A stretch of DNA of 64,000 nt from Turneriella sp. (lineage in GTDB: Bacteria > Spirochaetota > Leptospiria > Turneriellales > Turneriellaceae): contig CBDIID010000003.1 in the NCBI GenBank assembly GCA_965279515.1, forward strand, positions 896,001 through 960,000, in the 5' to 3' direction. The notes below the pieces were generated by a model. That model was not told the origin of the DNA and searched no databases. It was given only the letters and a program-made list of their open reading frames with translations. Both the position numbers and the translations under genes were made by a program. This document shows positions 1 to 62,454 of the stretch, piece by piece (within the stretch, counting starts at the first letter, position 1; the number at the start of each line of letters is the position of its first letter).

Positions 1-54
1 GGTCTGCGGCGAAGAGGGCATCCTGCCCGCCGCAGACCTTGCGCATCCCTGCGC
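1..54 (-). repeat. Twin-hairpin A(N)GGA-loop element (copy 1), immediately 3' of tRNA-Ser
   Basis: Minus strand reads GCGC-AGGGAT-GCGC AA GGTCTGCGGC-GGGC-AGGAT-GCCC-TCTTC-GCCGCAGACC; same architecture as five other copies; may be clipped by the window edge. Confidence 0.85.
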
Positions 55-56
55 TT

Positions 57-143
57 CGGAGGAGGTAGGATTCGAACCCACGAGACCCGTGAAGGTCTAA
101 CGGTTTTCAAGACCGCCGCATTCGACCACTCTGCCACTCCTCC
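57..143 (-). tRNA. tRNA-Ser(TGA)
   Basis: GGAGGAGTGGCAGAGTGG...CTTGAAA...long variable arm...GGTTCGAATCC...CTCCTCCG; CCA not encoded. Confidence 0.97.
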
Positions 144-287
144 TATGATTTACTATCCATGGTCGGATTTTCGGATCACCGAAAACCATGCGGACAATAA
201 AAAAAGACCTCTCGGTCTAATCTTACACGTTTAGAGATTGAAACACAGCGTCAAACGAATAGTGGATTGAGGGCCGGTTCAGGCGCT

Positions 288-725
288 TTAGATGGAGAAA
301 CGGCCTTTCAACAGGTTCCAGACACCCAGAGTCGCGAAAGTAGGCAGGCTTTTTGCAAACTGCGCACCGATCGTCGCCCAGTCAAAATAATCGCGCCACA
401 GCGTGATTTTACCGTTTTTGACCTCAAAGGTGCCACAAACCCAGAATTCCAGGCGGAGGCCCGGCCCCGAGAGAATATCTGTGCGCTCGGTGAGCACGGT
501 GCCATCTTTCTCAGCGATATTATGCATAATAACTTCAAACTTTTTACTGATCAGCCCAAAACGTTTCAAGGTTGCGATCGTGGCAGCTTTACCGTCATCC
601 GTAGGTAACGGCACGTTCTGGTACTGGACATTGTCGTCGAGAAGAGACTCCGCCTTTTCTAAATCGGAATCTTCGAGCGCCTTGAGGAAGTCGATGACGG
701 TTTCGGTTGCTGTTGTTTTTGCCAT
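288..725 (-). CDS. Limonene-1,2-epoxide hydrolase / SnoaL (NTF2-like) family protein
   Basis: YQNVP, VLTERTD, VCGTFEVKNGKITLWRDYFD motifs. Confidence 0.88.
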   Translation of the reverse strand: MAKTTATETVIDFLKALEDSDLEKAESLLDDNVQYQNVPLPTDDGKAATIATLKRFGLISKKFEVIMHNIAEKDGTVLTERTDILSGPGLRLEFWVCGTFEVKNGKITLWRDYFDWATIGAQFAKSLPTFATLGVWNLLKGRFSI

Positions 726-734
726 AAAACGACC

Positions 735-1628
735 TTAAAGGAACTTACTCTTCGCTACACCTTCATCAAACTCGCCGTAACCCGCATAGTCGATCAGGTC
801 ATAGAGCTCTTGCCGCGTCTGCATGTTCGGTACTTCACTTTCCTGCGAGCCCGAATTTTTAATGGCATTGAAGACGCGCTCGACGGCCTTCATCTGCACA
901 CGCAGTGAGGTGACGGGGTAAATCACCATTTTATATCCCCATTCCTGGAACTTTTGCGCTGGAATATAAGGCGTTTTACCGAATTCTGTCATGTTCGCCA
1001 GCAGCGGCACCTTGACTTCGGCGGCAAATTGTTTGAATTCTGCTTCTGTTTTCAGCGCTTCAGGGAAAATCGCATCGGCGCCAGCATTGACGTACATCTT
1101 CGCGCGCTTGATCGCTTCTTCAATGCCAAAGATCGCATGGGCATCGGTGCGCGCCAGCAACATCAGGTTCTTGCGCGTCTTTGCTATCGCTTCAATTTTG
1201 CGGCACATTTCATCTGCCGTGACGAGTTCTTTGCCTTCGAGGTGACCGCATTTTTTGGGCAGCTTCTGGTCTTCCATCTGGATCATCGCCGCGCCGGCGC
1301 CTTCCATCTCAAGCACAGTGCGTGGCAGGTGCACGACTTCACCGAAACCGGTGTCGACATCGACGAGAATCGGCAGGTTGGTCGATTGGTAGAGGCCGCG
1401 CACATAGTCCGCAAGCTCTGTGACCGTGAAGTAGCCGATGTCGGGCATACCGCGCGAGGCAGAAAACGCCGCGCCGGAGATATAAAGAGCTTTGAAGCCG
1501 GTCTTTTTGGCCATGAGGCCCGTCAGCTGATCGTGCGCGCCGGGCATCTGCACAATCTCTTTGCCCTGCAGCAGGGCTTTCATCCTTAAAGGAGCATCAA
1601 ATTCGCGTTTGTCTAACATCCATGGCAT
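735..1628 (-). CDS. prpB: 2-methylisocitrate lyase
   Basis: DVDTGFG, EDQKLPKKCGHLEGK, ARTDA, LANMTEFGKTP, MQTRQELY. Confidence 0.95.
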   Translation of the reverse strand: MPWMLDKREFDAPLRMKALLQGKEIVQMPGAHDQLTGLMAKKTGFKALYISGAAFSASRGMPDIGYFTVTELADYVRGLYQSTNLPILVDVDTGFGEVVHLPRTVLEMEGAGAAMIQMEDQKLPKKCGHLEGKELVTADEMCRKIEAIAKTRKNLMLLARTDAHAIFGIEEAIKRAKMYVNAGADAIFPEALKTEAEFKQFAAEVKVPLLANMTEFGKTPYIPAQKFQEWGYKMVIYPVTSLRVQMKAVERVFNAIKNSGSQESEVPNMQTRQELYDLIDYAGYGEFDEGVAKSKFL

Positions 1629-1705
1629 AAGGCAGCGTCGAGGATCGAAACAGGCCGTAAAACGAGAATTGCTTGACCGGGCGGCAAAGCGCGGTATCTG
1701 ATGGT

Positions 1706-2269
1706 ATGGCTTTAGCAGCGCCCGCCCGAAATAAACCGCGCTACGAAGGGATGCGCGTCACACGCGAGGAGTACCTTGACCTGCAGGAAGACGGCTTCAA
1801 ATACGACGTAATCGACGGAGTAATGACCATGGCACCGAGCCCCTATTTTGAACATAATCTCAGGGCGACGAATTTATTGGCGCGGTTACATTCCTATCTC
1901 AAAGAAACGGATTCTGGCCTCGTTGCTAACGAAACCGATGTTCTCTTACCTGACGGTGGCGACCCGCTCAGGCCTGATATCTCCCTTATCATGAAGCAAA
2001 ATCTGCAAATTATAAAAGGTCATATCCACGGTACGCCCGATCTCATCGTTGAGGTGCTCTCCGAATCGACCCGGGAACGCGACCTGGGAGTAAAAGCCGA
2101 TCGCTACCTCAAATGCGGAGTGCGTGAATACTGGATTCTCGATCCGGAAGATAAAACCATGCAATTGTGGCTGAACCGCAAAGACCACTGGGAGAAGAAA
2201 AATGACCCCGAACTTGCGTCGGAGTTGCTGCCCGGGTTATTGATCAGCAGGGCCGAGATTTTTGCTTAA
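1706..2269 (+). CDS. Uma2 family (PD-(D/E)xK-like) endonuclease
   Basis: M-A-P-S-P..H, RPDI, PDLIVEVLSESTRERDLGVK..Y...GVREYWILDP; ATG at 1706 chosen as start. Confidence 0.92.
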   Translation: MALAAPARNKPRYEGMRVTREEYLDLQEDGFKYDVIDGVMTMAPSPYFEHNLRATNLLARLHSYLKETDSGLVANETDVLLPDGGDPLRPDISLIMKQNLQIIKGHIHGTPDLIVEVLSESTRERDLGVKADRYLKCGVREYWILDPEDKTMQLWLNRKDHWEKKNDPELASELLPGLLISRAEIFA

Positions 2270-2302
2270 GCAACCGAACAAAAACCGTCGCTCACACCAC
2301 CC

Positions 2303-3538
2303 ATGAACATTCTCGATTTTCTGAATAACTCCCCCTCACCCGCCTGGGCGGCCGAAACGGCAGCTCAACTTCTGCAAAGTGCGGGATTCAAAGAGACCGG
2401 TCGCAAAATTTTTCTGCGCCCCCACCCCGGCATGCTGGTCGCGGCGGTCTTGCCCGAAAAAATACAGGCTGACAAAGCCTCATTCCGTATCATCGGCGCA
2501 CACACAGATTCACCCCACCTGCGCCTCAAACCCAACACTGCCGTTGAGGCTGCCGGTCATACCGTACTCACGAGCGAAATCTATGGCGGCGCCCTGCTCT
2601 ACACCTGGTTCGACCGCAATTTAGGCATTGCCGGTGAAATCTATTATAAATCGGGAAGTTCGGTTGCGCAGAAGCTCATCAAGATCGATGCGCCTGTCGC
2701 GATTGTGCCATCGCTGGCAATCCATCTGCAGCGTGGCGTCAATGAAGACGGTTTTATTCCCGCGAAGGCCGCGGGCATGAATGCACTCATTACCTTAAAG
2801 AAGGGGGATTTAGACTTCAACCAATATCTGGCGGCGCAGGTCAAGATTGCGCCCGAAACTTTGCTCAGCTATGACCTTTCCCTGTTCGATGTCCAGAAAG
2901 CCACGCGCGGCGGGCTGGATGATCAGCTATTGTCTTCAGCCCGCCTAGACAATCTCGTGAGTTGTTTTACTGCAGTCAGCGCACTCGCAGGTGCGGGCAG
3001 TGAAAATAGGATTCCGGTCGTCGCGCTCTTCGATCATGAAGAGATCGGCAGCGTTTCAGAGGCCGGTGCCGAAAGTATACTTACAGAAAACCTGCTGCGC
3101 GATTTCGGCGCACAGGCCGGGCTTGATGAAAAATCTTTCCGCAGCGCCCTCGGCCGCAGTATCTTTTTGAGCGCCGATATGGCGCACGGGGTACATCCCA
3201 ACGCAAGCGACAAGCATGACACGCAGAACCGGCCCCGCCTCGGCGGCGGCGTGACGCTCAAGGTGAACCAGAACCGCCGCTATGCGACCAGCGCAGCGAC
3301 GCAGGCGGTATTTCACGATATCTGCCGTACGAACCAAATTGCGTCGCAGATCTACACACACCGCAACGATTTACCCTGCGGCAGCACCATCGGCCCCGCA
3401 GTCAGCGCCCGGCTGGGCATAGCCACGCTCGACGTCGGCGTGGCGATGCTGGGCATGCATTCGATACGCGAAACCTGCGCGTGGGAAGATCTTGCCCACT
3501 ATCAGAAATTTATGAGCACGTTCTTGGCGGGGTCATAG
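2303..3538 (+). CDS. apeB: M18 family (aspartyl) aminopeptidase
   Basis: GAHTDSP, RLDNL, FDHEEIGS, SADMAH, PCGSTIGP, MHSIRE. Confidence 0.92.
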   Translation: MNILDFLNNSPSPAWAAETAAQLLQSAGFKETGRKIFLRPHPGMLVAAVLPEKIQADKASFRIIGAHTDSPHLRLKPNTAVEAAGHTVLTSEIYGGALLYTWFDRNLGIAGEIYYKSGSSVAQKLIKIDAPVAIVPSLAIHLQRGVNEDGFIPAKAAGMNALITLKKGDLDFNQYLAAQVKIAPETLLSYDLSLFDVQKATRGGLDDQLLSSARLDNLVSCFTAVSALAGAGSENRIPVVALFDHEEIGSVSEAGAESILTENLLRDFGAQAGLDEKSFRSALGRSIFLSADMAHGVHPNASDKHDTQNRPRLGGGVTLKVNQNRRYATSAATQAVFHDICRTNQIASQIYTHRNDLPCGSTIGPAVSARLGIATLDVGVAMLGMHSIRETCAWEDLAHYQKFMSTFLAGS

Positions 3539-3558
3539 GGGTATGCAATACCCCTATG
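3534..3558. terminator. Hairpin between convergent genes
   Basis: CATAGGGGTAT-GCA-ATACCCCTATG perfect 11-bp inverted repeat. Confidence 0.6.
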
Positions 3559-3582
3559 CATTTGATTACTTTTTAAAAGTAA

Positions 3583-3939
3583 TCAACCCATATTCCCGGC
3601 GCGGGAATTGATCTTATCGAGAAAGTCGAAATCGAGATTCAGCGTTTCATCGCCGTCAAAATGGCTCTTGAGTTCGGCGTAGATAATGCCGGAAAAATGC
3701 TTCTTGTCGTTGAGTTGGGGATGGATTGAGTACTCCACCCACCTGCCCTGCTTATTATCTAATACGAGATCGGAATCGCGCAGGATGGATAAATGCTGGG
3801 AAATCGTCGGCATCGACAGGCGCAGCATGAGTTTAATGTCATTAACGACGAGCGGTCGGCGCGACAAAAGCGCTAAAATCCGCAGCCGCTGCTTGTCGGA
3901 GAGCGCTTTGAACATGCGTTCGTATTCGCGCAATTGCAC
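3583..3939 (-). CDS. ArsR/SmtB family transcriptional regulator
   Basis: FKALSDKQRLRIL...SMPTISQHLSILRDSDLV...KQGRWVEYSI winged HTH. Confidence 0.92.
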   Translation of the reverse strand: MQLREYERMFKALSDKQRLRILALLSRRPLVVNDIKLMLRLSMPTISQHLSILRDSDLVLDNKQGRWVEYSIHPQLNDKKHFSGIIYAELKSHFDGDETLNLDFDFLDKINSRAGNMG

Positions 3940-4014
3940 ACTTAACGAAGTGGCGAAATGAATCGGCGTGTCAAGTAGGTCAAATAATGGAAGATCTGAT
4001 TGTGAATCAAAAAA

Positions 4015-4041
4015 CGCCGTGTCCCCGTGCTCGCCGTGGTT
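4015..4041. repeat. CACGG-unit palindromic repeat, half copy
   Basis: CGCCGTGTCCCCGTGCTCGCCGTGGTT matches the 3' arm of the elements at 5134, 10728 and 47373. Confidence 0.75.
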
Positions 4042-4246
4042 CTCATTTTTTTAAGCCTTCTATTCATTCAATTGATAACCTGCTAACATATTTATACTTC
4101 GCTATTTATCAAAATAAAGATTTTCTCGCTGAGTCACCTGCCCATTATGTCCCCAAGCCGTATTAGAGTCCTGTGGAAGCCTCCACACGAGTCCAATACG
4201 GCCCGACGGGGGAAATCCCCCTCAAATGGAAAAGAAAGGAGAATGT

Positions 4247-5119
4247 ATGAAAACAGCAAAGATCATAGCCGCCCTGTCACTCGCGGCCCTCATTGCCTGC
4301 GGTAAAAAGGACGCGAGCCTTAAAATTGCGGGTTCAGACACGATGGTGCAGCTCGGCCAGACCCTGGCGAAGACCTACATGGAAGCAGATGCGAAGAATA
4401 AAGTTTCTGTTCAGGGTGGCGGCAGCGGCACAGGCATCGCGGCGCTACTCAACGGTTCAACCGACATTGCCAGCGCCTCACGTGAAATGAAACCCAAGGA
4501 ATGGGACCAGGCGAAGGCGAAAGGCCTCAATGTGAAGGAATATGTTGTGGCGCTCGACGCATTGGCAGTCGTGGTGAACCCCACAAACAAAGTCGCTAAA
4601 CTCACGATCGCACAACTCAGTGATATCTATTCGGGCAAAATCAGCAACTGGAAAGAAGTCGGCGGCGAAGATAAGGAAATCCTCGTGATTTCGCGCGAAA
4701 ACAACTCGGGCACGCATGTCTATTTCAAAGAGCATGTGCTGCGCCAGGGTAAAGAAGCGAAAAAAGACGACGCCAACCCGGACCCGCTGTCAAAACTCGA
4801 ATTCGGCAGCAAGGTCACCTACGGCGTTTCATCCCAGGCGATCGCTGACCAGGTGAAATCAAACCCGGCAGCCATTGGTTATTTCGGCATGGGTTGGATC
4901 ACCAAAGATGTGAAGGCCGTGGAGATCAGCAAGGACGGCAAAACCTTCTTTGCGCCGACCGCTGAAAATACTTCGAGCAAAAAATATCCGATCGCGCGCG
5001 GTCTGCAGATGTATCTCAACACCGCATCGGGTGAAAAAGGCCAAAGGTTCATTGACTTTGTGATGAGCGCTGCCGGACAAAAGGTTGTTAAAGACCAGGA
5101 TTTCGTTCCGGTTAAGTAA
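4247..5119 (+). CDS. pstS: Phosphate ABC transporter substrate-binding lipoprotein
   Basis: Lipobox LIAC; AGSDTM, GGGSGTG, ASASR, SRENNSGT, YPIAR; AAGGAG SD before ATG 4247. Confidence 0.95.
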   Translation: MKTAKIIAALSLAALIACGKKDASLKIAGSDTMVQLGQTLAKTYMEADAKNKVSVQGGGSGTGIAALLNGSTDIASASREMKPKEWDQAKAKGLNVKEYVVALDALAVVVNPTNKVAKLTIAQLSDIYSGKISNWKEVGGEDKEILVISRENNSGTHVYFKEHVLRQGKEAKKDDANPDPLSKLEFGSKVTYGVSSQAIADQVKSNPAAIGYFGMGWITKDVKAVEISKDGKTFFAPTAENTSSKKYPIARGLQMYLNTASGEKGQRFIDFVMSAAGQKVVKDQDFVPVK

Positions 5120-5133
5120 TCGGTATGAAAAAG

Positions 5134-5199
5134 ACCACAGCGATCACGGAGGACACGGCGATGAAACCAAATCGCCGTGCTCGCCGTGCCGCCGCGGTT
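5134..5199. repeat. CACGG-unit palindromic intergenic repeat
   Basis: ACCACAGCGAT-CACGGAGGA-CACGGCGAT ... ATCGCCGTGCTCGCCGTGCCGCCGCGGTT. Confidence 0.85.
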
Positions 5200-5320
5200 A
5201 AAAATTCTATCGCCATTCAGCAAAATTGCCTTGAAAATCAAGGTCATTTTGCTAAATGACGAATAACGATGTACGCAAAGTCGAAGGGGCAATAGTTGGC
5301 CTGCGTACGAGGAGCTATCA

Positions 5321-6205
5321 ATGCAAAAGCGTAGCCGCATCGCAGAATATCTCATCGAAAAAGGCCTGATACGATTATCGGGTTATGCGGCCGTCGCCGT
5401 ATTGCTCCTGATTCTGTTCTTTATTTTGCGCGAAGGTCTGCCGTTCTTCGGCGTCTACAGCGCATCGGATTTCCTCTTTAAGACAGACTGGTATCCGCTC
5501 TCGGGCCGTTACGGCATGTTGCCGCTTCTCACCGGCAGCATCATGGTCACTGTATTGTCGCTCGCCGTCGCTGTGCCGATGGCGATCGGGACTGCAATTT
5601 TTCTCTCAGAACTTGCGCCAACACGCGTGAGAAGCATGTTCAAGGTGCTGCTCGAAATACTCGCGTCGATACCATCGGTGGTGTTCGGCTTTTTAGGTAT
5701 TATCTTCTTAGGTCCCTGGGTGCAAAAGACCTTTGGCCTGCAGACGGGCCTTAACGCCTTTAGCGCGGGAATCCTGCTTGCCTTCATGGCTTTGCCCACG
5801 ATTGCCAGTGTCGCCGACGAGGCGATGCAGGCAGTGCCGCGCAGTTTGCGCGAGGCATCGCTGGCGCTGGGCGCAAGCCGCATACAGACGATTTTCCGTA
5901 TCACATTCCCCGCTGCATCGTCGGGGGTCATCGCCGGCGTGATGCTCGGCATCGGCCGCGCGATCGGTGAAACCATGACCGTGATGATGGTCGCGGGCGG
6001 CTCTGCGCAGGTAACTCTCAACCCGATGGCGCCGGTGCGTACCATGACGGGCACCATCGCCGCGGAAATGGGCGAAGTCGTGATGGGCGACGACCATTAC
6101 CGCGCACTCTTTATGATCGGCTTGCTGCTTTTTGTCATCACGCTCGGCGTAAACACGCTCTCGGGCCTGATCATCGAGCGCATCCGCCGGAGGCAGGGAG
6201 CATGA
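5321..6205 (+). CDS. pstC: Phosphate ABC transporter permease
   Basis: [46 protein letters not shown]. Confidence 0.96.
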   Translation: MQKRSRIAEYLIEKGLIRLSGYAAVAVLLLILFFILREGLPFFGVYSASDFLFKTDWYPLSGRYGMLPLLTGSIMVTVLSLAVAVPMAIGTAIFLSELAPTRVRSMFKVLLEILASIPSVVFGFLGIIFLGPWVQKTFGLQTGLNAFSAGILLAFMALPTIASVADEAMQAVPRSLREASLALGASRIQTIFRITFPAASSGVIAGVMLGIGRAIGETMTVMMVAGGSAQVTLNPMAPVRTMTGTIAAEMGEVVMGDDHYRALFMIGLLLFVITLGVNTLSGLIIERIRRRQGA

Positions 6206-7059
6206 TCGCGCGCAAGATTCGCGTCGGTGACGGCATCGGCTTAGCGTTTATTTATACGATGACTGCTCTCGTCTTCTTGCCTTTGGTAGGCTTTCTCGTC
6301 TATGTCATTGCAAAAGGTGTCGGGCGCATCAACTGGGAGTTCCTCTTCACCGCGTCTTCGTCGATGGAATCGGGCGGCATCTTTGCACCGCTGTACGGTA
6401 CGTTGATTTTAACTCTGGCTTCTCTGGTGGTGGCGGTGCCGATTTCACTTTTTGCCGCAGTCTATCTTTCAGAGTACGCGCGCAAAGACCGCTGGTTCCA
6501 GATTATTGAACTCACGATTGTCAACCTCGCTGGAGTGCCGTCGGTAGTTTATGGCCTTTTCGGCTTGGGACTCTTCGTTATTTTCTTTGGCCTCGGCAAA
6601 TCCATCATTGCCGGTGCGCTGACGATGGCCTGCATGTCGCTGCCGCTTCTGGTCACGGTTTTTTACCAGGCGCTCAAAGCGGTTCCCCTAACCCTGCGCG
6701 AGGCATCGCTGGCGCTGGGGGCGTCGAAACTGGCGACAACGTTTAGGATCGTGGTTCCGACAGCGCTTCCCGGTATTTTCACGGGCGTCATTCTCGCAAC
6801 CGCGCGTATTGCCGGCGAAACGGCACCGGTACTCTTTACGGTCGCTGCATACTACATGCCCAACCTGCCGCAGAGCCTTTCAGATCAGTCGATGCTGCTC
6901 TCTTACCATCTCTATGTCATCAGCACACAGAATACCGGGGTCAAAGACGAACAGAAGTTTGCCGTCACGCTGGTTCTGGTGCTGCTCGTGCTCCTCGTGA
7001 ACCTCATCGCCATCTGGGCGAGATCGCGCGCCCGCAAAAAAATCGGTAACCTAGGATAA
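6202..7059 (+). CDS. pstA: Phosphate ABC transporter permease
   Basis: [29 protein letters not shown]; 4-bp overlap with pstC. Confidence 0.96.
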
Positions 7060-7063
7060 TATT

Positions 7064-7849
7064 ATGGAAAAAGCCGCCACGGATGTAATTACAAAGCCAA
7101 TTCTAAAACTCGAGCAGGTCAATCTGCATTACGGCGACAACCATGTGCTGAAAAATATCAGTATGGACATCGCCGCTAACTCGATTACCGCCTTCATCGG
7201 CCCTTCAGGCTGCGGCAAGTCGTCGCTGCTGCGCTGCCTCAACCGCATGAACGACCTCATTGATACGACCAAGGTCGAAGGTAAAATCTTATTCGACGGC
7301 AAGATCGACATCAACGAACGCCGCATCGACGTCACGCAACTGCGCCGCAAGATCGGCATGGTATTCCAGAAACCGAACCCCTTCCCCAAATCGATCTATG
7401 AAAACATCGCCTACGGTATACGCATTGCGCAGGCGGCGCCAAAATCTGAAGTCGACGGCCGTATTGAAGAGGCCTTAAAAAAGGTCGGGCTCTGGAAAGA
7501 AGTTTCTGACCGCCTGAAAGATTCGGGGATGGCCCTCTCGGGTGGCCAGGCGCAGCGGCTTTGCATTGCACGCACGATTGCCACGAAGCCCGATATCATT
7601 CTGATGGATGAACCTACCAGCGCGCTCGACCCGATCAGCACGCAGACGATTGAAGAGCTTACGCTCGAACTCAAAGAAAACTACACCGTGGTGATTGTCA
7701 CGCACAACATGCAGCAAGCCGCGCGGATCTCGGACAGCACGGCATTCTTTTACCTCGGTGATCTGATTGAATACAGCCCGACGAAAGTCATGTTTACGCG
7801 TCCGCAACAAAAGAGAACAGAAGACTACATCACAGGCCGGTTCGGCTAG
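7064..7849 (+). CDS. pstB: Phosphate ABC transporter ATP-binding protein
   Basis: [48 protein letters not shown]. Confidence 0.98.
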
Positions 7850-7857
7850 GAGAAATT

Positions 7858-8484
7858 ATGCTCATCATCGAAAAAGCCCTCAAGGAACTCCGCGAAAACC
7901 TCAACTTGATGACCGAAGTGGTGCTCGACATGCTCGAGCTCGTCAAAAACTCGCTCGAACAGGAAAAGATCAACGAGCTCGAGGTTGTCTTCAAACAGGA
8001 TAAACACTTAGACCAGCTCGAAAAGGCCCTCGACCGCCAGTGCATGGAGCTGCTCGCACTCATCAATCCGCATGCGTCGGACCTGCGTTTTGTTTTTTCA
8101 GTGATCAAGGTCAACGTCGATCTCGAGCGCATGGGCGACGAATGCAAAAACGTCGCACGTGAGATGAAGGGTTACAGCGACAAAATACCACCTGAGATGA
8201 AACAACTGGCCGAGATGGTCTATGCCACTGCGCAGAAGACATTCCGCGCACTGAAGAATGACGATTCGAAGCTTGCGAAAGAGATTATTCTCGAAGATGA
8301 CGCCATCGACACACTCGAATACAATATCCTGCAAAAGTACCCGCAGATCGGCACCTCGTTTACCGCCAAGGCCCTCGAGCGCATCGCCGACCATGCGACG
8401 AATGTGGCTGAGAGCATCATCTATTCCGTGGAAGGTATTGACGTGCGCCACGAGAACACCATCAGACAGCGTATGGGAAAGTAG
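7858..8484 (+). CDS. phoU: Phosphate signalling complex protein
   Basis: ASDLR, DLERMGD, ALERIADHATNVAE, GIDVRH. Confidence 0.95.
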   Translation: MLIIEKALKELRENLNLMTEVVLDMLELVKNSLEQEKINELEVVFKQDKHLDQLEKALDRQCMELLALINPHASDLRFVFSVIKVNVDLERMGDECKNVAREMKGYSDKIPPEMKQLAEMVYATAQKTFRALKNDDSKLAKEIILEDDAIDTLEYNILQKYPQIGTSFTAKALERIADHATNVAESIIYSVEGIDVRHENTIRQRMGK

Positions 8485-8556
8485 CCCTTTGTTGCGCAGC
8501 ATAAAAAAGTGGCTGCGGCCTCAACATTTCGTTATTTTCCTAAATGAAGAATATAC

Positions 8557-9879
8557 ATGAAAGCAACAATGACAAAACTAACCAAAGAGACAGCCCCACA
8601 GTCCTGGGATGCCGAACTCACGCACGCGCTTGCCGTCGCCCGCAATATTCTCGAACAGCGTACCTGGCGGCAAAGCATCCGCGAAAACACTATCTTTTCG
8701 GCGTTCGAAGTCGGCAAGCTGGCCAACATCGCCATTGACTGGGTTTCGAACGAGACGGCGCTCAAAACCGTCGACGAACTCATACACGATTTCGGCATCG
8801 AGTTTTTTCCCGTACGCGCCTCGGGTAAATTTATCGGCTATGTGAAGCAGGAGAAATTCCGCGCGCTGCTGGGGCAGAACCAGTACAGCCGCGATATCTT
8901 TTTGCGCAGCGAAAATACCGTCATCGATGTTCTCGAAGAAGGTTTAGTGAGCGTCGATGCGCGTATGACTCTGCCTGAGGTGTCGCGCCTACTCATGGCC
9001 CGCGGCCGCGAGCAGCTCTATGATCCCTTCGTTATCACCTACCACGGCGAATATTACGGCGTCGCCACCGTTAAGGCCGTCATGGACGGCATCGCCTTCT
9101 ACGAGCAAAAAGATATCGCCGCCGCCCGCGAAGCGCAGCAGGCGATGAACAGCCCCAAAAAAAACAACCGGGGTATCTATGTCGATTATGACTTCTTTAT
9201 CGAGCAACACGGTGAAGTCGGCGGCGATTTTATCTATGCACAGGGCCTGAAACCCCATCTGACACTGTTCTCCGTGATGGACGTCTGCGGCAAGGGCCTC
9301 AAGGCGGCGCAGATGGCCATGGCGATGGGCGCCTATTTCCGCGCGATCTTCAAATATCTCTGCAAGACGGGTATCGATGCGGATTTCCGCAGTGTCAAAC
9401 TCTCGCAGCGCCTGAAAATCCTCAACACCATGCTGGCAAAATCGACGCCGTCCGATATGTATGCCTCAGGTGTCGTGCTGCTGCTCGATATCCGTAATAA
9501 TATTCTCCTTTACTTCGATTTCGGCCATACCCCGGTCTATGTGCTGCGCAACGGCAAGGTCATGCCGCTGCCGCGCGCAGAACACAACGAAGCCGACGGC
9601 TTCCCTTTCGTCGGTGTCGAAGAGCAGATGATCATCCGTTCGGTGCCGATACGCGTTAAATCGGGCGATGTCTTCATCGTCACCACAGACGGTATCGGCG
9701 AAACCCGCAACGAGATGCGCGAAGAATTCGGCGAAGACGGCATCATCCGCACACTGACCGGCCGTACATTTGAACACCCGACACAAGTGACCGAACTCAT
9801 GCGCACGGCACTGGCCAATTTCCGGGGCAAGTACCGAAGGCTCGACGATATGTCCTTCCTGAGCTTCATGGTGCCATAG
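8557..9879 (+). CDS. CBS-pair plus SpoIIE/PP2C-type protein phosphatase
   Basis: N-terminal CBS-like pair (DPFVITYHGEYYGVATVKAVM); PP2C motifs VGGDF, DVCGKG, GH, TDGIGE, DDMS. Confidence 0.85.
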   Translation: MKATMTKLTKETAPQSWDAELTHALAVARNILEQRTWRQSIRENTIFSAFEVGKLANIAIDWVSNETALKTVDELIHDFGIEFFPVRASGKFIGYVKQEKFRALLGQNQYSRDIFLRSENTVIDVLEEGLVSVDARMTLPEVSRLLMARGREQLYDPFVITYHGEYYGVATVKAVMDGIAFYEQKDIAAAREAQQAMNSPKKNNRGIYVDYDFFIEQHGEVGGDFIYAQGLKPHLTLFSVMDVCGKGLKAAQMAMAMGAYFRAIFKYLCKTGIDADFRSVKLSQRLKILNTMLAKSTPSDMYASGVVLLLDIRNNILLYFDFGHTPVYVLRNGKVMPLPRAEHNEADGFPFVGVEEQMIIRSVPIRVKSGDVFIVTTDGIGETRNEMREEFGEDGIIRTLTGRTFEHPTQVTELMRTALANFRGKYRRLDDMSFLSFMVP

Positions 9880-9885
9880 GCACAG

Positions 9886-10704
9886 ATGTCTGAAAAGGTA
9901 AAAAAATTCCGCTTTAAAAAAGATACAGTTTACGACGCACTGTATATCTCCGATATCCATTACCTGCTGAAGAAGAAGGTCCGCAATCATATGCATAAAG
10001 ACCTCTTCAAAATGCTCGATCACCTGAAAAAACGCGGCGTGCGTTTCCGCAAGATTTTTCTTGTCGGCGATATCATTGAAAACTGGTATTTCAGCGCGCA
10101 GAGAAAACTCGTGCGCAAATTCGGTAAAAAACGCTTCAACAAGCTTTTCGACCGCTTCGACGCGCTCGCAACACCCGTTTCGCTCAAGGTTTACCTGATC
10201 GGCAACCACGACTCATTCAGCTATGTCGGCAGCCTGCCGCCGAAAATAGATCAGTACCTCAGGGAACGCGATTATGCGATCCAGGACCGCTATGAAAGCG
10301 AACGCCTGGTAGTATTGCACGGCCACCAGGGGCAATACACAAAATTTTCATGGTTCTTAAATATTCTCGGGGTGCGGCTTCTGCATCTACTGACGCATAT
10401 CTTTCCTTCGATTTTCATCACGATGGAAAATTTCTACCGCAAACATTTTAACTTCGACCGCAACGAGACCGAAGACGAGGTGCGCGAGTACTACGGCCTG
10501 CTGCGCGAACGCTCGAACCAGGGTAACCGCCTGCTGATCTGCGGCCATACCCACCAGGCGATGGCAGACCAGCGCCTGCGGGTTATCAATACCGGCGACT
10601 GGATCGAATCCGGCACGTTTGTCATCGAGCAGAACCAGGAATTTGTTGGTTTAGAGTTTAAATCGAAGAAGAAAATTCTGGAAAAATTCAACGTAAAACT
10701 GTAG
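9886..10704 (+). CDS. Calcineurin-like metallophosphoesterase (LpxH/PlcP-like)
   Basis: ISDIH, LVGDII, IGNHD, LHGH, CGHTH, NTGDW. Confidence 0.85.
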   Translation: MSEKVKKFRFKKDTVYDALYISDIHYLLKKKVRNHMHKDLFKMLDHLKKRGVRFRKIFLVGDIIENWYFSAQRKLVRKFGKKRFNKLFDRFDALATPVSLKVYLIGNHDSFSYVGSLPPKIDQYLRERDYAIQDRYESERLVVLHGHQGQYTKFSWFLNILGVRLLHLLTHIFPSIFITMENFYRKHFNFDRNETEDEVREYYGLLRERSNQGNRLLICGHTHQAMADQRLRVINTGDWIESGTFVIEQNQEFVGLEFKSKKKILEKFNVKL

Positions 10705-10727
10705 CGCCTGGGAACCGTATCCTATGT

Positions 10728-10788
10728 AACCACGGCGAACACGGCGATTTGGATTTTTCCCGCCGTGCCCTCCGTGATCGCCGTGGTT
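10728..10788. repeat. CACGG-unit palindromic intergenic repeat
   Basis: AACCACGGCGAACACGGCGAT...CGCCGTGCCCTCCGTGATCGCCGTGGTT between convergent genes. Confidence 0.85.
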
Positions 10789-12012
10789 CTATCTTGCGGC
10801 AGCCTTACGGTAGATCTTTTCGAGCTTATCAGTGCACTTGTCATGCCCGTGATCCTGCGCAATTTCGATGGAGGCCGCTGAACACGCCTCATAGAGCGCG
10901 GCATCTTTCAGCAGGCGCACCGCCGCTTCGGCCATTTTGTGTATGTCATGGGCAGGCGGCGTAAAACCGTTGCGGCCATTCTGGATGAGCTCGGGCAGCG
11001 CATAGGCATCCACACCCACCGCTGGTAATCCCGTCGCAATCGCCTCGAGCGCCACAAGGCCCTGCGTTTCCATCGCCGAAGCGGTGATAAAGAGGTCATG
11101 GTCGGCATAGATTTGCGGCAGCTCGCCGCGCGATTTGTAGCCCATGAAGTTGATGCTGTCGGCGACGTTCAGTTCCGACGCTTCGCGCTTCAGATCGAGC
11201 AGCACCGGCCCGTCGCCGACCACGGTCAGAAGCGCATCGGGAATCTCGCGCTTGATGAGTGTAAAGGCGCGTATGACTTCTTCGGTATTTTTTTCGGGCG
11301 CAATACGGCCGACATGCAGAATACGCGGATGGCTGACCGGGAAATGGCGCTTCTCGCCGCGGAAAAAACGCAAATCGATACCATTCGAGACAACCGTCAC
11401 CGGCGCTTTGATCTGATGGTTGATGAGTTCTTTTTTTATCAGCTCGCTCGGTGAGATAACGATCTGGCATTTCTCATAGAGCCGGTTCGCGAGCTTAAAG
11501 AGCAGCTTGCCACCCAGCGATGCCGGCCTTTTGCGCGTCAGTTTTTCGAGTTTTGAGGCTATTTTTTTCTTGCGGCGGAAACGTGTGAGTAGTTTGTCGA
11601 GCTTCAAAAGCCTGAAAGGATTTACGTACATCCCCACTTCACTCATCATTGTGTGGTAGGTGCCAATCACGGGAATCGAATAAATTTTGCCCGCGGCGAC
11701 CCCATACTGCCCCATAAAGCCCGGCGTCTGGATATGGATGAGGTCGGGCTTAAAATCCTTAATCACCTTGTGCAGACGCGTGCGGCCGGGCACAATGATG
11801 CGCATTTCGGGGTATGAAGGCAATGCCACCGACTTGAAACGCTCAATGCGGATGTTCGCTCCCATGAGCTCGGTGTCATCGTCACCATAACGGGGACAGC
11901 AGATCACAAACTTGTGTCCCCTGCCCTCGAGTTTCTCGCAAAAGTTTTGCACCGAAACGGCGATCCCGTCGATTTTCGGAAAAAAGGAATCCGTGAAGAT
12001 GGCAATCCGCAT
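10789..12012 (-). CDS. GT4 glycosyltransferase (1,2-diacylglycerol glycosyltransferase-like)
   Basis: MRIAIFTDSFFPKIDGIA, HIQTP, TYHT, VGRIAPEKN, ETQGLVALEA. Confidence 0.9.
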   Translation of the reverse strand: MRIAIFTDSFFPKIDGIAVSVQNFCEKLEGRGHKFVICCPRYGDDDTELMGANIRIERFKSVALPSYPEMRIIVPGRTRLHKVIKDFKPDLIHIQTPGFMGQYGVAAGKIYSIPVIGTYHTMMSEVGMYVNPFRLLKLDKLLTRFRRKKKIASKLEKLTRKRPASLGGKLLFKLANRLYEKCQIVISPSELIKKELINHQIKAPVTVVSNGIDLRFFRGEKRHFPVSHPRILHVGRIAPEKNTEEVIRAFTLIKREIPDALLTVVGDGPVLLDLKREASELNVADSINFMGYKSRGELPQIYADHDLFITASAMETQGLVALEAIATGLPAVGVDAYALPELIQNGRNGFTPPAHDIHKMAEAAVRLLKDAALYEACSAASIEIAQDHGHDKCTDKLEKIYRKAAAR

Positions 12013-12081
12013 AATATATTATTTCGCTAACTAACGAATCATAATCTGCGGGTCAACCTAAAATGGTTAAACCCAAAACAA

Positions 12082-13107
12082 TTATTTTGCGGCTTGCACG
12101 AGGGCGATGAGATCGGGCAGCATCGTCTCTGCCGTGAGTTTGTAGTGTTTCATGAGCGACGGTGCATCGCCTGACTGGCCGAACTCGTCGCGCAGGCCGA
12201 TGCGATGCACGCGGCAGGGCTGCTTTTCGGCGATAATTTCAGCGACGGCAGACCCCATGCCCGCCATGATGTTGTGCTCTTCAAAGGTCACAACCAGTTT
12301 CGCATCTTTCGCTTCTGTGAGGATGGTCTTCTCATCGAGAGGTTTTACCGAATATGCGTCAATCACCGTCGGCTTCACACCGGTCTCTTTTTCGAGCAGC
12401 GCCGCGGCTTTCCAGGCCTCATAGACCATGACACCGGTGGCCACAAAAACAACCGGTGCGCCATGGTTCAAGGATGAACCGGGGTCGGCCGAGCCAGGGA
12501 TGGCGAAAGGCCGACCTTTCTGCAAAACGGTTGAACCACCAACTTTAAAAGTATCGGCTGCGCTGTAGATCGACGGCACATTCGGCCGGCCGAGGCGCAG
12601 GTAGACAGGTCCATCAAATGCCACAGCCGCTTTAATCGCCGCAGCGGCGTGAAAATAATCGGCAGGCACAAGTACGGTCAGGCCGGGGATAACCCGCGTC
12701 AGGGCGAGGTCTTCAATGATCTGGTGGCTGGCACCGTCTTCGCCGAGTGTAATGCCGGCATGCGTTGCAGCGACTTTGACGTTGAGGTGAGGATAACAAA
12801 CCGAATTACGCAGAATTTCCCAGGCGCGGCCGGCGGCAAACATCGCAAAACTCGACGCCACGGGTATGAGCCCCGAGAGCGCAAAGCCGGCTGCCTGGCC
12901 GATGAGGTTCTGCTCCGCCACGCCGTAATTAAAGAAGCGATCAGGGTACTTTTCACTGAATTTTTTGGTTTTCGTCGAACCTGAAAGGTCGGCATCGAGT
13001 ACCACGACCTTAGGGTTCTCAGCCCCGATTTCGACGAGTGCCGCGCCATAACCGTCGCGGGTCGCCTTTTTCTCGAGATTTGCAGCGAGTATATCTGTAA
13101 CTGGCAC
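12082..13107 (-). CDS. Transketolase C-terminal subunit (split transketolase), carrying an 18-aa palindrome-derived insertion
   Basis: ATRDGYG, DADLSGST, GVAEQN, GEDGASHQ, GPVYLRL, EEH; GTG start. Confidence 0.93.
   Translation of the reverse strand: MPVTDILAANLEKKATRDGYGAALVEIGAENPKVVVLDADLSGSTKTKKFSEKYPDRFFNYGVAEQNLIGQAAGFALSGLIPVASSFAMFAAGRAWEILRNSVCYPHLNVKVAATHAGITLGEDGASHQIIEDLALTRVIPGLTVLVPADYFHAAAAIKAAVAFDGPVYLRLGRPNVPSIYSAADTFKVGGSTVLQKGRPFAIPGSADPGSSLNHGAPVVFVATGVMVYEAWKAAALLEKETGVKPTVIDAYSVKPLDEKTILTEAKDAKLVVTFEEHNIMAGMGSAVAEIIAEKQPCRVHRIGLRDEFGQSGDAPSLMKHYKLTAETMLPDLIALVQAAK
12465..12516 (+). repeat. Twin-hairpin A(N)GGA-loop element (copy 2), in-frame and antisense inside the transketolase gene
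   Basis: GGTTC-AAGGAT-GAACC GG GGTCGGCC-GA-GCC-AGGGAT-GGC-GAAA-GGCCGACC. Confidence 0.9.
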
Positions 13108-13214
13108 ATGGCTAAACCGGGGGTTTTAACACGCTGTCACCCGGATTTCCACAGAATGCTCAGTGAGGTGAGAAAAACAAGCCTGTTTTTGGTATTTCAT
13201 TTATAGAGCCAGCC

Positions 13215-13799: not shown

Positions 13800-13823
13800 A
13801 AATTCCAAATTCACACGGCGCAA

Positions 13824-18890: not shown

Positions 18891-19121
18891 ATGCGTAAAC
18901 CCTCAATCGCGGCTGGCCGCAACAAATTCAAAAAGGTTCTGTCACAGTACGTCAAACACCAGGGCCTCGACCTCGAAGTCACCATGAAAGGCGGCGAACG
19001 CGTTACCCTGTCAAAAATGCGGAAAATCGAAGGCGATCAGGTCATCTCCACCACATCGCGTGGCATCCAGTCAGCGCTGGCTATCCGCGATATCACACAC
19101 CTCGAAGTTTTTGTAAACTGA
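18891..19121 (+). CDS. Small basic hypothetical protein (76 aa)
   Basis: AAGGAG SD, typical codon usage, fills the intergenic gap. Confidence 0.8.
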   Translation: MRKPSIAAGRNKFKKVLSQYVKHQGLDLEVTMKGGERVTLSKMRKIEGDQVISTTSRGIQSALAIRDITHLEVFVN

Positions 19122-19175
19122 GACACAGGATGTGTCCAGGCCACCGCCGACAGGATGTCGTCGGTGCGGTGGCTG
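19122..19175 (+). repeat. Twin-hairpin A(N)GGA-loop element (copy 4) between convergent stop codons
   Basis: GACAC-AGGAT-GTGTC CAG GCCACCGC-CGAC-AGGAT-GTCG-TCGGT-GCGGTGGC. Confidence 0.9.
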
Positions 19176-19176
19176 A

Positions 19177-19422
19177 CTATTCTTCTAAAAGCGCGTTCAT
19201 GCTCGCCAGCAATGCGTCGAGCGGAACGCCATAACCCATGCAGATCTGCTCGAGGGTTTCAATTTCATTGATACCACAGTGTGAGCAACCGCCCAAATGG
19301 AAACTCGCGAGAACCAGGCCCGCTTCTTCATGGATGCGCAGCGCCTCGCCTACGGTTGTTTGACCGGTAAATTGTGGCTTTTGTGTAACTTCAGCAGCCG
19401 GGGCACTTGTTGTGGTTTCCAT
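19177..19422 (-). CDS. DUF1858-like / hybrid-cluster-associated redox disulfide domain protein
   Basis: TVGEAL..H.EA..VL..FHLGGCSHC....ETLEQ....YG; ATG 19422. Confidence 0.8.
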   Translation of the reverse strand: METTTSAPAAEVTQKPQFTGQTTVGEALRIHEEAGLVLASFHLGGCSHCGINEIETLEQICMGYGVPLDALLASMNALLEE

Positions 19423-47372: not shown

Positions 47373-47435
47373 AACCACGGCGAACACGTAGAGCACGGCG
47401 TAATAATTTGCGAAGCGCCGTGCCTGCCGTGGCTT
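47373..47435. repeat. CACGG-unit palindromic intergenic repeat
   Basis: AACCACGGCGAACACGTAGAGCACGGCG...CGCCGTGCCTGCCGTGGCTT between convergent genes. Confidence 0.85.
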
Positions 47436-47442
47436 TTTCTAT

Positions 47443-58049: not shown

Positions 58050-58538
58050 ATGAAAAAATTGATTCTGATGGGCCACGCGCTCATCCTGACTATTGCTTTT
58101 GCCCTGACCGGCAGTGTTGCGGCTAAATCCGCATGCCAGGGCCTCGGCGAAAGCGAATGCTCTTCCAACGAAAATTGCACATGGGTAAAAGGCTATGAGC
58201 AAAAAGACGGAGACAAAGTAAAAGCTTATTGCCGCGCAAAACCCGGTAAAGGCGACGGCGAAAAGAAAGAAAAAAAGAAGAAAGACAAATCAGACGAAGC
58301 AGTGAAGTCTGACGACGACAAAGCTGAGAAGAAAGACAAGAAAAAGAAGAAGAAAAAAGAAAAATCTGAAGAAGCCGTAAAAACTGACGACGCTAAAGCA
58401 GAAAAGAAAGAGAAAAAAGAAAAAAAGCCTAAGAAGAAAAAAGAGAAAGAAGACAAAAAAGAAACAAAGTCTGACGACAAAAAAGACGACGACAAGAAAA
58501 AATCTAAAAAGAAAAAGAAAGAGAAAAAAGAAGACTAA
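58050..58538 (+). CDS. Exported protein with 4-Cys N-terminal domain and Lys/Glu/Asp-rich tail
   Basis: Signal peptide; C..C..CTWV.GY..KDG.KV.AYCR; K/E/D low-complexity repeats; preceded by TTGACA, followed by a hairpin. Confidence 0.8.
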   Translation: MKKLILMGHALILTIAFALTGSVAAKSACQGLGESECSSNENCTWVKGYEQKDGDKVKAYCRAKPGKGDGEKKEKKKKDKSDEAVKSDDDKAEKKDKKKKKKKEKSEEAVKTDDAKAEKKEKKEKKPKKKKEKEDKKETKSDDKKDDDKKKSKKKKKEKKED

Positions 58539-58554
58539 TCCAGTTTCTTCAACT

Positions 58555-60550: not shown

Positions 60551-60640
60551 AAATAAGTAGAGGCGGCATAGATTTTTTTTTATCTACACCGTCGACGAGA
60601 AAAGTAGCAAATGCGCGGTGCGAAAGGCGCTTCAGGAAGG

Positions 60641-61021
60641 CTAAACCGGGCGCCAGATCAGTGCGAGCGCGATGGCCGGAACCAGTCCCTGCAGGAGCAC
60701 GCCGCGCAGCATAGCCATGCCCGCCGAAAACAACAAGACAAGCGCCGCAGCGACCATACTGCCCAAGGTGACCGTCAGAATCGCAACGGCCTGCGAGACA
60801 TATCCCGTATTCCAGAGATAAATGCCGGCAACCGTCGCAATAGCGAGAAACAGGTTATAGTACCCTTGGTTCAGCGCCATCAGTTTGGTAGTCTGCGCTT
60901 CGGCTTCGGTGCGGCGAAAAATCTTCCGCACGGCAGGTTTCATCCAGAACAGGCTTTCCATCGCGAAAAACAGCACATGAACGAAAGCGGCAACGGCCGC
61001 AAGGATCGATATGGTTAACAT
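60641..61021 (-). CDS. DUF1304 family membrane protein
   Basis: VHVLFFAMES..W, ALNQGYYNLFLA, LLQG. Confidence 0.85.
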   Translation of the reverse strand: MLTISILAAVAAFVHVLFFAMESLFWMKPAVRKIFRRTEAEAQTTKLMALNQGYYNLFLAIATVAGIYLWNTGYVSQAVAILTVTLGSMVAAALVLLFSAGMAMLRGVLLQGLVPAIALALIWRPV

Positions 61022-61118
61022 GGCTGATTCATATGCGAAGCATCCGGATGTCAACTAAAACGCGGGCCCCATCAAATCGCGATTTACAGCGCCGTTAAAG
61101 GCCATGTGCTGCCGGGCG

Positions 61119-61610
61119 ATGAGCGAAGCCGTACACCCACCACGCAAACGGATTGCGCAGATCGGCTTCATCACGATCGGATTGCCGTTTGCGGCGTTTA
61201 AGATTCTCTTCGGCCTGACCATGCCGGCGCTCTGGCCGGGGCAGGCAGCCCAGATCGGCGGCGCGGGGCTTGTTATTCTCGGTGCTCTTGATCTCCTGGT
61301 CAACGCGCTTAACTCCACATTTATGCTGGTTCGCGGAAAAATTTTGACGCAGGTCTGCGTGTTCGCGATCCTCTTCGATTGGCTGGGAAAAAAGAGAGTG
61401 GAGGGCGATAAGGCAACAATCCGTTCCGCGGATTTCGGCACGGCGCTCGATGTCATGCTGTCCTTCACGCTGGTCGCGCTCTGTGTAGGGCTCAATCTCC
61501 TGGCGCGCTTTGGCGAAAGCGAACGGCTGCTGTGGAACCTCAGCGTCGTTGTCAACGTGCTCGGCGCAGGTGTCTCGCGCATCATGGTTTCTATTCTCAA
61601 GGCGGATTGA
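61119..61610 (+). CDS. Hypothetical membrane protein
   Basis: About 4 TM helices; ends 1 nt before the cobB start. Confidence 0.7.
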   Translation: MSEAVHPPRKRIAQIGFITIGLPFAAFKILFGLTMPALWPGQAAQIGGAGLVILGALDLLVNALNSTFMLVRGKILTQVCVFAILFDWLGKKRVEGDKATIRSADFGTALDVMLSFTLVALCVGLNLLARFGESERLLWNLSVVVNVLGAGVSRIMVSILKAD

Positions 61611-61611
61611 C

Positions 61612-62454
61612 ATGGCGGAAAAAACGGCGATCGAACGCGCGGCGGCGATTCTCAAAGCGGCGAAACATCCCCTCTTCCTGAGCGGCGCCGGTATCTCGGC
61701 CGAGAGCGGTATACCGACTTTTCGGGGCACAGGAGGTGCTCGAGCCGGCGGCGACAAGGATGTCGCAGCCGCCGGCCGCGGCGCCGAGGGGCTTTGGAAA
61801 AATTTTCGGGCCGAAGCGACACGAGGTCGCGAGTCGGACGCCGCCAGGATGGCGTCCTTGCGTCCCGAAGAGCTGGCGACGCCCGAAGCTTTTCGCCGCG
61901 ACCCGGCGCTCGTCTGGGAATGGTACAACTGGCGTAAGCGCCTGATCTCGGAAAAGCAGCCGAACCCGGCGCACCATGCGATTGTCACCATTCAGAAAAA
62001 ACTGCCGGAATTGCTTTCGGTAACGCAAAATGTCGACGGCTTTCACGCCCTCGCCGGTCTCGGTGAAATTCTCGAAATGCACGGCAATATTTTCCGCGCG
62101 CGGTGTACATCCTGCAAAGCGGTGCATGCGATGCGCGAAGATGTAGATCCCCACACCGCCTGCCCTGCCTGTATGGCGGCGGCGCTGCGCCCCGACATCG
62201 TCTGGTTCGGCGAGCAGCTGCCGTCAGCCATTCTCGACAAGATCTACGAACGGCTACGTATCGCCGATGTCATTCTCGTGGTCGGCACTTCAGGGCAGGT
62301 TTACCCGGCCGCAGGTTTTGCGGTCGAGGTCAGGCGCCGCGAAGGGCATGTGATCGAGATCAACATTGAAGAGGGCCACAAGGCGTATGCGAACGATATT
62401 TATATCCGCGGCAAGGCGGGAGATATTTTGCCACAGATTGCGGAGCTGGTTTAA
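61612..62454 (+). CDS. cobB: NAD-dependent protein deacylase (class III sirtuin) with two 18-aa palindrome-derived insertions
   Basis: GAGISAESGIPTFRG, YNWR (YxxR), PNPAH, TQNVDG, HG, CxxC...CxxC, LRPDIVWFGE, VGTSG.VYPAA. Confidence 0.95.
   Translation: MAEKTAIERAAAILKAAKHPLFLSGAGISAESGIPTFRGTGGARAGGDKDVAAAGRGAEGLWKNFRAEATRGRESDAARMASLRPEELATPEAFRRDPALVWEWYNWRKRLISEKQPNPAHHAIVTIQKKLPELLSVTQNVDGFHALAGLGEILEMHGNIFRARCTSCKAVHAMREDVDPHTACPACMAAALRPDIVWFGEQLPSAILDKIYERLRIADVILVVGTSGQVYPAAGFAVEVRRREGHVIEINIEEGHKAYANDIYIRGKAGDILPQIAELV
61727..61776 (+). repeat. Twin-hairpin A(N)GGA-loop element (copy 5), in-frame in cobB
   Basis: GCAC-AGGAG-GTGC TCGA GCCGGCGGC-GAC-AAGGAT-GTC-GCA-GCCGCCGGC. Confidence 0.9.
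61816..61865 (+). repeat. Twin-hairpin A(N)GGA-loop element (copy 6), in-frame in cobB
   Basis: GCGAC-ACGAG-GTCGC GAGTC GGACGC-CGCC-AGGAT-GGCG-TCCTT-GCGTCC; first loop degenerate (ACGA). Confidence 0.88.

Follow-up and report, generated by a model that had tools for sequence, protein, structure and literature searches.

We analysed a stretch of 64,000 nucleotides from Turneriella sp. (assembly GCA_965279515.1, contig CBDIID010000003.1, positions 896,001 to 960,000; hereafter the window) in which an earlier note, made from the letters alone, had described six copies of a small element with one architecture. All six fold as described, into a short hairpin and then a bulged long hairpin, and comparison with related genomes indicates that this twin-hairpin repeat is a real, genus-wide, structure-defined insertion element. 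The copies, scored in bits with a covariance model (R1) described below, and their neighbouring or host genes are the following:

1..61, minus strand: element copy 1, directly 3' of tRNA-Ser and cut by the window start (4 bases lie outside); 58 bits, fold z-score -4.3
57..143, minus strand: tRNA-Ser(TGA), upstream neighbour of copy 1
12082..13107, minus strand: transketolase C-terminal subunit gene (Pfam PF02779/PF02780), host of copy 2
12459..12521, plus strand: element copy 2, an in-frame insert of 54 bp (18 aa) that runs antisense to the transketolase mRNA; 32 bits
18810..18859, plus strand: copy 3, in the leader of a 76-aa gene; 15.3 bits
18891..19121, plus strand: the 76-aa gene, conserved, with no Pfam family, between copies 3 and 4
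19116..19179, plus strand: element copy 4, occupying the gap between two convergent stop codons; 55.6 bits
61594..62454, plus strand: Sir2/CobB deacylase gene (Pfam PF02146), host of copies 5 and 6
61720..61782, plus strand: element copy 5, a 54-bp in-frame insertion at Sir2 site 1, sense; 33.3 bits
61810..61871, plus strand: element copy 6, a 54-bp in-frame insertion at Sir2 site 2, sense; 38.8 bits

Five of the window copies score 32-58 bits and copy 3 is weak; the RNA fold z-score of copy 6 is modest (-1.1), those of the others range from -2.3 to -4.3. The hairpins proposed for copy 1 were confirmed, with the correction that it lies on the minus strand, and the A(N)GGA loops claimed for all six copies were found except in copy 6, where one loop reads ACGAG and lacks GGA. 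The transketolase segment that contains copy 2 has 58 aa versus 40 aa in all 7 intact orthologues parsed (17 loci). This copy is bridged gap-free by contigs from 3 sequencing runs, and no indels at elements were seen in the sequencing-run contigs across window positions 1-20000. Copies 5 and 6 add 18 aa each to Sir2, and the match of its product to PDB sirtuins is interrupted at the inserts. The gap orthologous to that of copy 4 lacks the element in 4 of 4 relatives. The product of the 76-aa gene shows 84-96% identity in 4 of 5 genomes, and a protein atlas gave no named family for it at >=0.9; the nearest named clusters, Sm/Hfq-like at 0.78-0.81, are a lead only.

Architecture, distribution and mobility

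In the 47 canonical copies the unit starts with a 4-bp short stem closed by C-G around an A(N)GGA(T/G/C) loop. After a 3-nt linker comes the long hairpin, whose outer stem has 9 bp and whose inner stem, of 4 bp, carries a second loop of this kind; its 3' bulge is 5 nt long and begins with TC. The hairpin tips are of the CA(N)GGA(K)G type, and the unit measures ~54-57 bp (54 or 57 bp for in-frame inserts, 60 in one alignment). A strict descriptor of this shape found 35 twins in the 4.84-Mb chromosome and a relaxed one 66, against 0 for either in a fifth-order Markov genome, and a Watson-Crick-only scan gave 61 versus 0 in its control, more than chance would give. From the closing G of loop 1 to the opening C of loop 2 the spacing is 19 or 20 nt in 62 of the 66 twins. 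Model R1, built from 12 well-aligned copies out of 22 initially aligned, has 89 matches in this genome at E<=0.01; there is some circularity in its pair counts, since the copies had been picked for pairing.

The earlier statement that the stems are almost unrelated between copies was slightly overstated, since subfamilies exist: 21 unlinked pairs share at least 17 of 25 internal positions (~3 expected), yet even the closest unlinked pair has only 20 of 25 in common. Short-stem similarity and long-hairpin similarity are not linked (Mantel r ~0.03, 61 dereplicated copies). Among 148 elements the loop words were ACGGA (92), ATGGA (62), AGGA (55), AAGGA (40), ACGA (26), AGGGA (17), ATGA (2) and ACAGA (2), and AAGA, permitted by the scan, was found 0 times; these counts are not independent, the copies sharing descent. 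GGA stands in both loops of 120 elements and is missing from at least one loop of the other 28, mostly through the single variant ACGA. Swaps between AGGA and ACGA recur between orthologous Sir2 copies.

R1 matches were present in all 13 congeners (36-104 copies each), and six other genomes of the family had 0, 0, 7, 3, 0 and 0 (150 candidates scored per genome). With 34 candidates scored in each genome, the other family of the class gave a match in 0 of 21 genomes, and in a sample of the phylum 15 of 150 had 1-11 matches with the same outline. The strict pattern recovered 42 GTDB loci; 22 of these have 8 or all 9 outer pairs and carry without exception the label Spirochaetota, many that of Turneriella, and the 10 from other phyla have no more than 6 outer pairs. 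Viral contigs gave 0 matches to this pattern. A variant with a purine-rich bulge (L154, L156, L171) came up in three records, two of them of other spirochaetes and one of Desulfobulbaceae. Within this genome 44 of 93 loci lie inside genes (arrays merged, our own gene calls), in agreement with the claim that copies occur both between genes and inside them, and the hosts of in-frame copies include recG, tatD, rnr, aroA, thiC and cobB.

Filled and empty alleles support the mobility of the element, because copies 2, 5 and 6 are exact 54-bp in-frame inserts with empty orthologues, and recG, rnr, tatD and others are alike. Among 16 parsed Sir2 orthologues (17 loci), both inserts are present in 2, that of site 2 alone in 2 and that of site 1 alone in 1; site 1 holds a shorter insert in 3, and the other 8 are empty. 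By site, the position of copy 5 is intact in 3, shorter in 3 and empty in 10, and that of copy 6 is occupied in 4. Even the sister genomes G014 and G018 differ at site 1. Orthologues are empty for recG (4/5), rnr (5/5), tatD (5/5), an amine oxidase (2/2) and also an MBOAT gene, and the aroA insert is common to this genome and G018, two further genomes being empty and two having shorter inserts. Conversely, about a dozen copies of relatives have empty counterpart sites in this genome. Many copies are lineage-specific and sister copies exist at unlinked loci. The suggestion of a structure-defined mobile palindromic element has thus held up, the evidence being the empty orthologous sites (transketolase, Sir2, recG, rnr, tatD, copy-4 gap), the in-frame inserts of 54 or 57 bp, the tandem arrays and the unlinked sister copies. 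Insertion and loss are shown to be precise, and copies survive in genes when their length is a multiple of three.

Folding strand, ends and modes of spread

The 148 elements contain 57 G·T versus 14 A·C pairs (p=3e-7; detection is neutral between the two) and therefore the GGA strand is the strand that must fold. Of 285 pair cells compared between orthologous sites, 219 were unchanged and 43 showed double compensatory changes; in 13 the pair was broken, 6 were wobble changes and 4 fell into other classes, in a tally that covers 19 of 38 orthologous-site pairs and hides decayed elements, as 14 of 17 pairs had to be kept. Double compensatory changes thus exceed single ones (43 vs 19), which would suit an old insertion burst followed by purely mutational covariation through hairpin extrusion and template switching, with arrays and losses made by slippage and with no enzyme or selection acting now. 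The same scenario would accommodate the failure to find a mobiliser or identical unlinked copies, and the fact that at some sites the inner 16 nt are a near-inverted copy of the target. Template switching is strand-symmetric, yet G·T pairs are favoured over A·C, and the scenario leaves unexplained the kept loop words, the fixed spacing and the bulge TC, which differs at 3 of 38 positions versus 23 of 57 in the rest of the bulge; we regard it as distinctly improbable. At three in-frame sites, compared in 10 pairs that are not independent and counting only inserts still recognisable, the inserts diverge by 16%, evenly across codon positions, versus 54% at the four-fold sites of their host genes. 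Judging from these alignments, the constraint on in-frame copies is on nucleotides; its cause could be either that copies able to fold turn over locally or that the host selects on the RNA.

The units often form head-to-tail arrays of 2-5, a further unit or short hairpin following 39 of the 120 canonical elements, and the largest clusters of GGA hairpins, with 5 hairpins, are arrays of the unit. One insertion hotspot occupies the same position in two adenylate/guanylate cyclase paralogues (G000:C3:4257539 and 4332533-4332999), and in relatives (L064, L066, L068, L080) it holds arrays of up to 5 units. In unlinked sister copies the shared sequence begins ~9 nt ahead of loop 1 and extends ~20 nt past loop 2, beyond which similarity drops to background, and the summed best boundary of filled/empty pairs (18 usable of 21) lies 6-9 nt before loop 1, at the outer-stem foot. 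Flanking direct repeats range from 0 to ~15 nt; among 67 solo copies 17 reach at least 7 of 11 positions (5.5 expected) and 8 at least 9 of 11 (0.3 expected), and at the amine oxidase site the repeat matches at 13 of 15 bases, native codons recurring on both sides. In tatD and recG the left arm is absent from the empty allele and therefore arrived with the element. Pairing of the 4-mer in the left flank with the outer 5' arm exceeds chance (p=0.004). Of 20 empty sites, 6 rank among the best 10% for the family junction profile, and at some sites the inner 16 nt resemble an inverted copy of the target. The flanks consist of CC and then purines, with no GTAG or CGTC tag, and a common basal stem was not detected in 75 copies (flank duplex -10.14 kcal/mol versus -10.38 after shuffling, a value as low being reached by 79 of 100 shuffles). 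From these data we infer integration at junction-like sites, which fits them better than a fixed duplication. An exact target duplication with target-templated stems was attractive at one site, but its general test was negative and the left arms of tatD and recG are donor-type.

The best explanation, in which our confidence is about evenly balanced, is a non-autonomous miniature element of ~54-57 bp whose mobile form is a single strand and which uses microhomology at its junction to integrate. A host or trans-acting enzyme would read the folded GGA strand, either as single-stranded DNA, as in IS200/IS605 or repetitive extragenic palindrome (REP) systems, or as RNA; the exiting unit would be a small circle, or a concatemer, with its joint at the outer-stem foot, and would integrate at sites with a few to ~15 bases in common with the unit junction. 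An existing copy or empty site would be the best target, from which arrays, hotspots and local gain and loss would follow, and local turnover would select folding-competent copies, so that the shape would be kept while the stems drift. Binding of transcribed copies by CsrA could be a side effect, with copy 3 maybe one co-opted case.

Several observations weigh against this single-strand account. Identical unlinked copies were not found, so that present activity is not proven. Boundaries scatter between sites, the very close pair L129 has no flanking repeat whatever, there is no single offset at which the right-flank triplet matches the short stem, and the junction profile gives a modest result, the median rank being 0.27, with one site strong and some out of register. 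The conservation of the in-frame copies could also be due to host selection, and the 44 coding copies lean towards sense (29 sense, 15 antisense; p=0.049). There is no leading/lagging replication-strand bias (42/93), unlike in IS608. No mobiliser was found in this genome or the relatives examined, GIY-YIG, DUF559 and other nuclease families not having been searched. In particular, the HUH/RAYT gene flanked by the element that the earlier note had envisaged did not appear, the best R1 match at 28 Y1 loci being 17.4 bits and other palindromes flanking them; IS110 transposase (PF02371) occurs in 0 of 20 family genomes, and reverse transcriptase, in 7 of 20 (6 of 14 in the genus), never lies beside the element.

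Reverse transcriptase would be needed by a bacterial retroelement of the short interspersed nuclear element (SINE) type, whose folded RNA would be reverse-transcribed at a nick with microhomology priming, leaving variable target duplications. Flanking repeats of variable length, a pairing bias of the G·U type and copies that directly follow tRNAs on the 3' side, in this genome and in another family, are what such an element might produce. The presence of the enzyme in only 6 of 14 genus genomes, away from the element, argues against it, as do the constant unit length (no truncation series was seen, none having been looked for) and flank copies that are often imperfect, with donor-type bases, and we give this origin only a slight chance.

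Other candidates for the enzyme were also rejected. Y1/RAYT-like genes are found in 12 of 14 genus genomes, but every gene has its own palindrome, and the one elsewhere in this genome is flanked by a different palindrome from the element. These Turneriella genes (L001, L235-L260) are of several types, each with its own perfect palindrome, as in REPtron-like families. The exonuclease III gene is flanked by two copies here and by none in 3 of 3 relatives recovered, and inspection by eye of N-terminal sequences showed no further nuclease between 11 close pairs of copies. The sole reverse transcriptase of the genome (511 aa, L039:775-2310, minus strand) sits among poorly characterised genes, possibly a defence island. 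Elsewhere, at G000:C3 ~93,000-170,000 and 3,734,000-3,803,000 (L265-L268), two long arrays consist of small genes split by ~220-nt branched repeats which, judged by eye, resemble integron attC sites; one motif has 91 matches, and no integrase was found among open reading frames (ORFs) of at least 150 aa in 8-9 kb at the four ends of these arrays. Kinship of the element with these cassette repeats was discarded: a TCTT-type bulge is shared, but those repeats bear their GGGA loop on the other strand, and R1 gives no match to them.

The earlier note had offered a second explanation, dispersed CsrA operators or a distributed sponge. The high-affinity CsrA site is described as an ANGGAX hexaloop on a stem (PMC4005645), which the element loops match. 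The check for a csrA gene came out positive: it is present in this genome, adjoining fliW, the gene of the protein antagonist of CsrA, and in 20 of 20 family genomes, including 4 without an element match. A PF13366 gene also adjoins fliW. In its strongest form the explanation would be that once-mobile copies are now kept because CsrA dimers bind both GGA loops in transcripts, as operators or as a sponge fed by sense and antisense transcription. The 120 elements with GGA in both loops would fit, as would the conservation of copy 3 in a sense leader, the nucleotide-level conservation of orthologous inserts, a tolerance of G·T that suits RNA, and the sense lean of coding copies, which stop codons do not explain (open-frame counts 61 vs 63 of 102). 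On the other hand, between co-directional genes there is no bias towards the transcript strand (16 sense to 17 antisense copies), antisense copies score no lower (median 38.6 vs 42.6 bits, p=0.46), AGGA and ACGA loops alternate between orthologous Sir2 copies, csrA adjoins the gene of its antagonist and occurs in element-free genomes as well, and many copies are lineage-specific. ACGA is selectively tolerated, and the series AGGA 55, ACGA 26, ATGA 2, AAGA 0 fits a reader other than CsrA. Because of the even orientation and the ACGA loops CsrA is unsupported as a general purpose, and operators or a sponge find no support as an explanation of the whole family, in which 15 of 44 coding copies are antisense and 28 of 148 elements lack GGA in at least one loop. 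A sponge RNA of the CsrB/RsmZ type would be a dedicated transcript with a promoter and terminator of its own and many GGA hairpins; the largest hairpin clusters here, of 5, are arrays of the unit. Retention by CsrA dimers appears to us unlikely.

What remains of the CsrA reading is copy 3. In 5 of 5 genomes with the 76-aa gene, two GGA hairpins are retained in the sense leader together with a ribosome-binding site that contains GGA; a conserved box precedes the hairpins, and the long outer stem is lost in relatives, of which 4 of 4 keep the GGA loops. This is the pattern of an operator, and copy 3 may be a co-opted case. We consider it a candidate CsrA operator, either a degenerate or domesticated copy or an independent GGA-hairpin pair. 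On sequence grounds CsrA may plausibly act at copy 3, but for the family such a function has no support. The idea of a sigma-28 promoter ahead of copy 3 was rejected, its motif not being enriched (360 vs 383 in the control), and only the conserved box is claimed. Elements also stand antisense just upstream of two flagellin genes (G000:C3:3509543 and 3984737), and flagellin leaders carry sense GGA words.

A bolder form of the single-strand account, which we put forward as doubtful, is a minimal self-targeting element in which the 16 nt between the loops would be an internal guide for its own junction and target, retargeted as the stems drift, and the enzyme would read CA(N)(G/C)GA loops. If this were true, the element would be the stripped-down core of a superfamily like the TwoAYGGAY repeats discussed below, their "CsrA sites" would primarily be mobility signals, and housekeeping proteins would receive a steady supply of 18-19-aa loops. 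A structure-defined element already adds 18-19 residues to enzymes such as RecG, TatD, AroA and CobB, and its in-frame copies give codon-exact filled and empty alleles over 14 genomes, in which ends, targets and evolution in place are directly readable. The Turneriella family makes the question of regulatory RNA versus mobile DNA testable for TwoAYGGAY-like repeats, and a mobiliser, if found, could reveal a short sequence-guided insertion system.

The window further contains a transfer-messenger RNA gene (17297-17639, minus strand), a 3,737-aa ORF (19898-31111, minus strand) in which a 351-bp repeat occurs five times in tandem (24873-26576), and an ORF with Lys/Glu/Asp-rich repeats (58050-58538; stretch 58260-58547). 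A second repeat family forms inverted pairs (4011-4041, 5134-5188, 10728-10788, 47373-47440), presumably of the kind tied to GxxExxY genes.

Comparison with known systems

The closest kind is the TwoAYGGAY RNA motif, Rfam RF01731 (Weinberg 2010, PMC2864571; Gardner and Eldai, PMC4333381). It is described as multicopy, with copy-number variation, a suspected mobile-like spread and a proposed CsrA binding; a 2026 preprint that already reports the variation in copy number and the suspected mobility leaves undecided whether such repeats are regulatory RNA or mobile DNA (bioRxiv 10.64898/2026.09.22.753630). The Turneriella element resembles its core, with two sequential A(N)GGA-type hairpins, the first short and the second longer and bulged, and one copy aligns to model positions 48-110. 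However, the best score in the genome is 24.4 bits versus a gathering cut-off of 43, with no match in the window, both loops read AYGGAY in only 15 of 148 elements, and there is no basal stem. Compared with what is reported for TwoAYGGAY, the unit is also shorter (~55 bp vs at least 168), arranged in head-to-tail arrays instead of divergent doublets, more often intragenic (44 of 93 loci vs ~1,693 of 16,086 in Pseudomonas) and found in Spirochaetota.

Palindromic in-frame insertion is known from Rickettsia palindromic elements (RPEs) and intragenic REPs (PMC3733652, PMC3184786), and Turneriella shares with them the insertions in unrelated housekeeping genes, DNA-repair genes included; its own insertions have empty orthologues. 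Its unit is shorter than RPE-1 as described (~105-146 bp), with little sequence identity from copy to copy and twin GGA loops, and it differs from described REPs in having no GTAG or CGTC tag at the hairpin foot and no flanked transposase found. With IS200/IS605 and REP/RAYT systems it has in common bulged hairpins tied to one strand, a loss that is precise, and an inner segment pairing both with the element's end and with the left flank of the target, guide pairing at hairpin ends being known from IS608 and REP (PMC6006769). The Turneriella element differs from them in lacking a cognate Y1 gene, a lagging-strand bias and a fixed tetranucleotide target, and in its variable extra homology.

As for MITEs (miniature inverted-repeat transposable elements) mobilised by DDE enzymes, here the ends do not pair and flanking repeats of 0 to ~15 nt take the place of a fixed-length target duplication, and IS110/IS1111 would require PF02371, found in none of the 20 family genomes. 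Mycobacterial interspersed repetitive units (MIRUs) show tandem copy-number variation and are conserved in sequence, without the twin GGA architecture. The Turneriella family differs from them in being conserved in structure. Otherwise it is like MIRUs as described, with units of 40-100 bp, tens of loci per genome, filled and empty sites and short flanking repeats (PMC3184786). In the literature searched, with most subscription journals outside its scope, we found no account of this spirochaete element. It is a new minimal variant of twin-GGA hairpin repeats.

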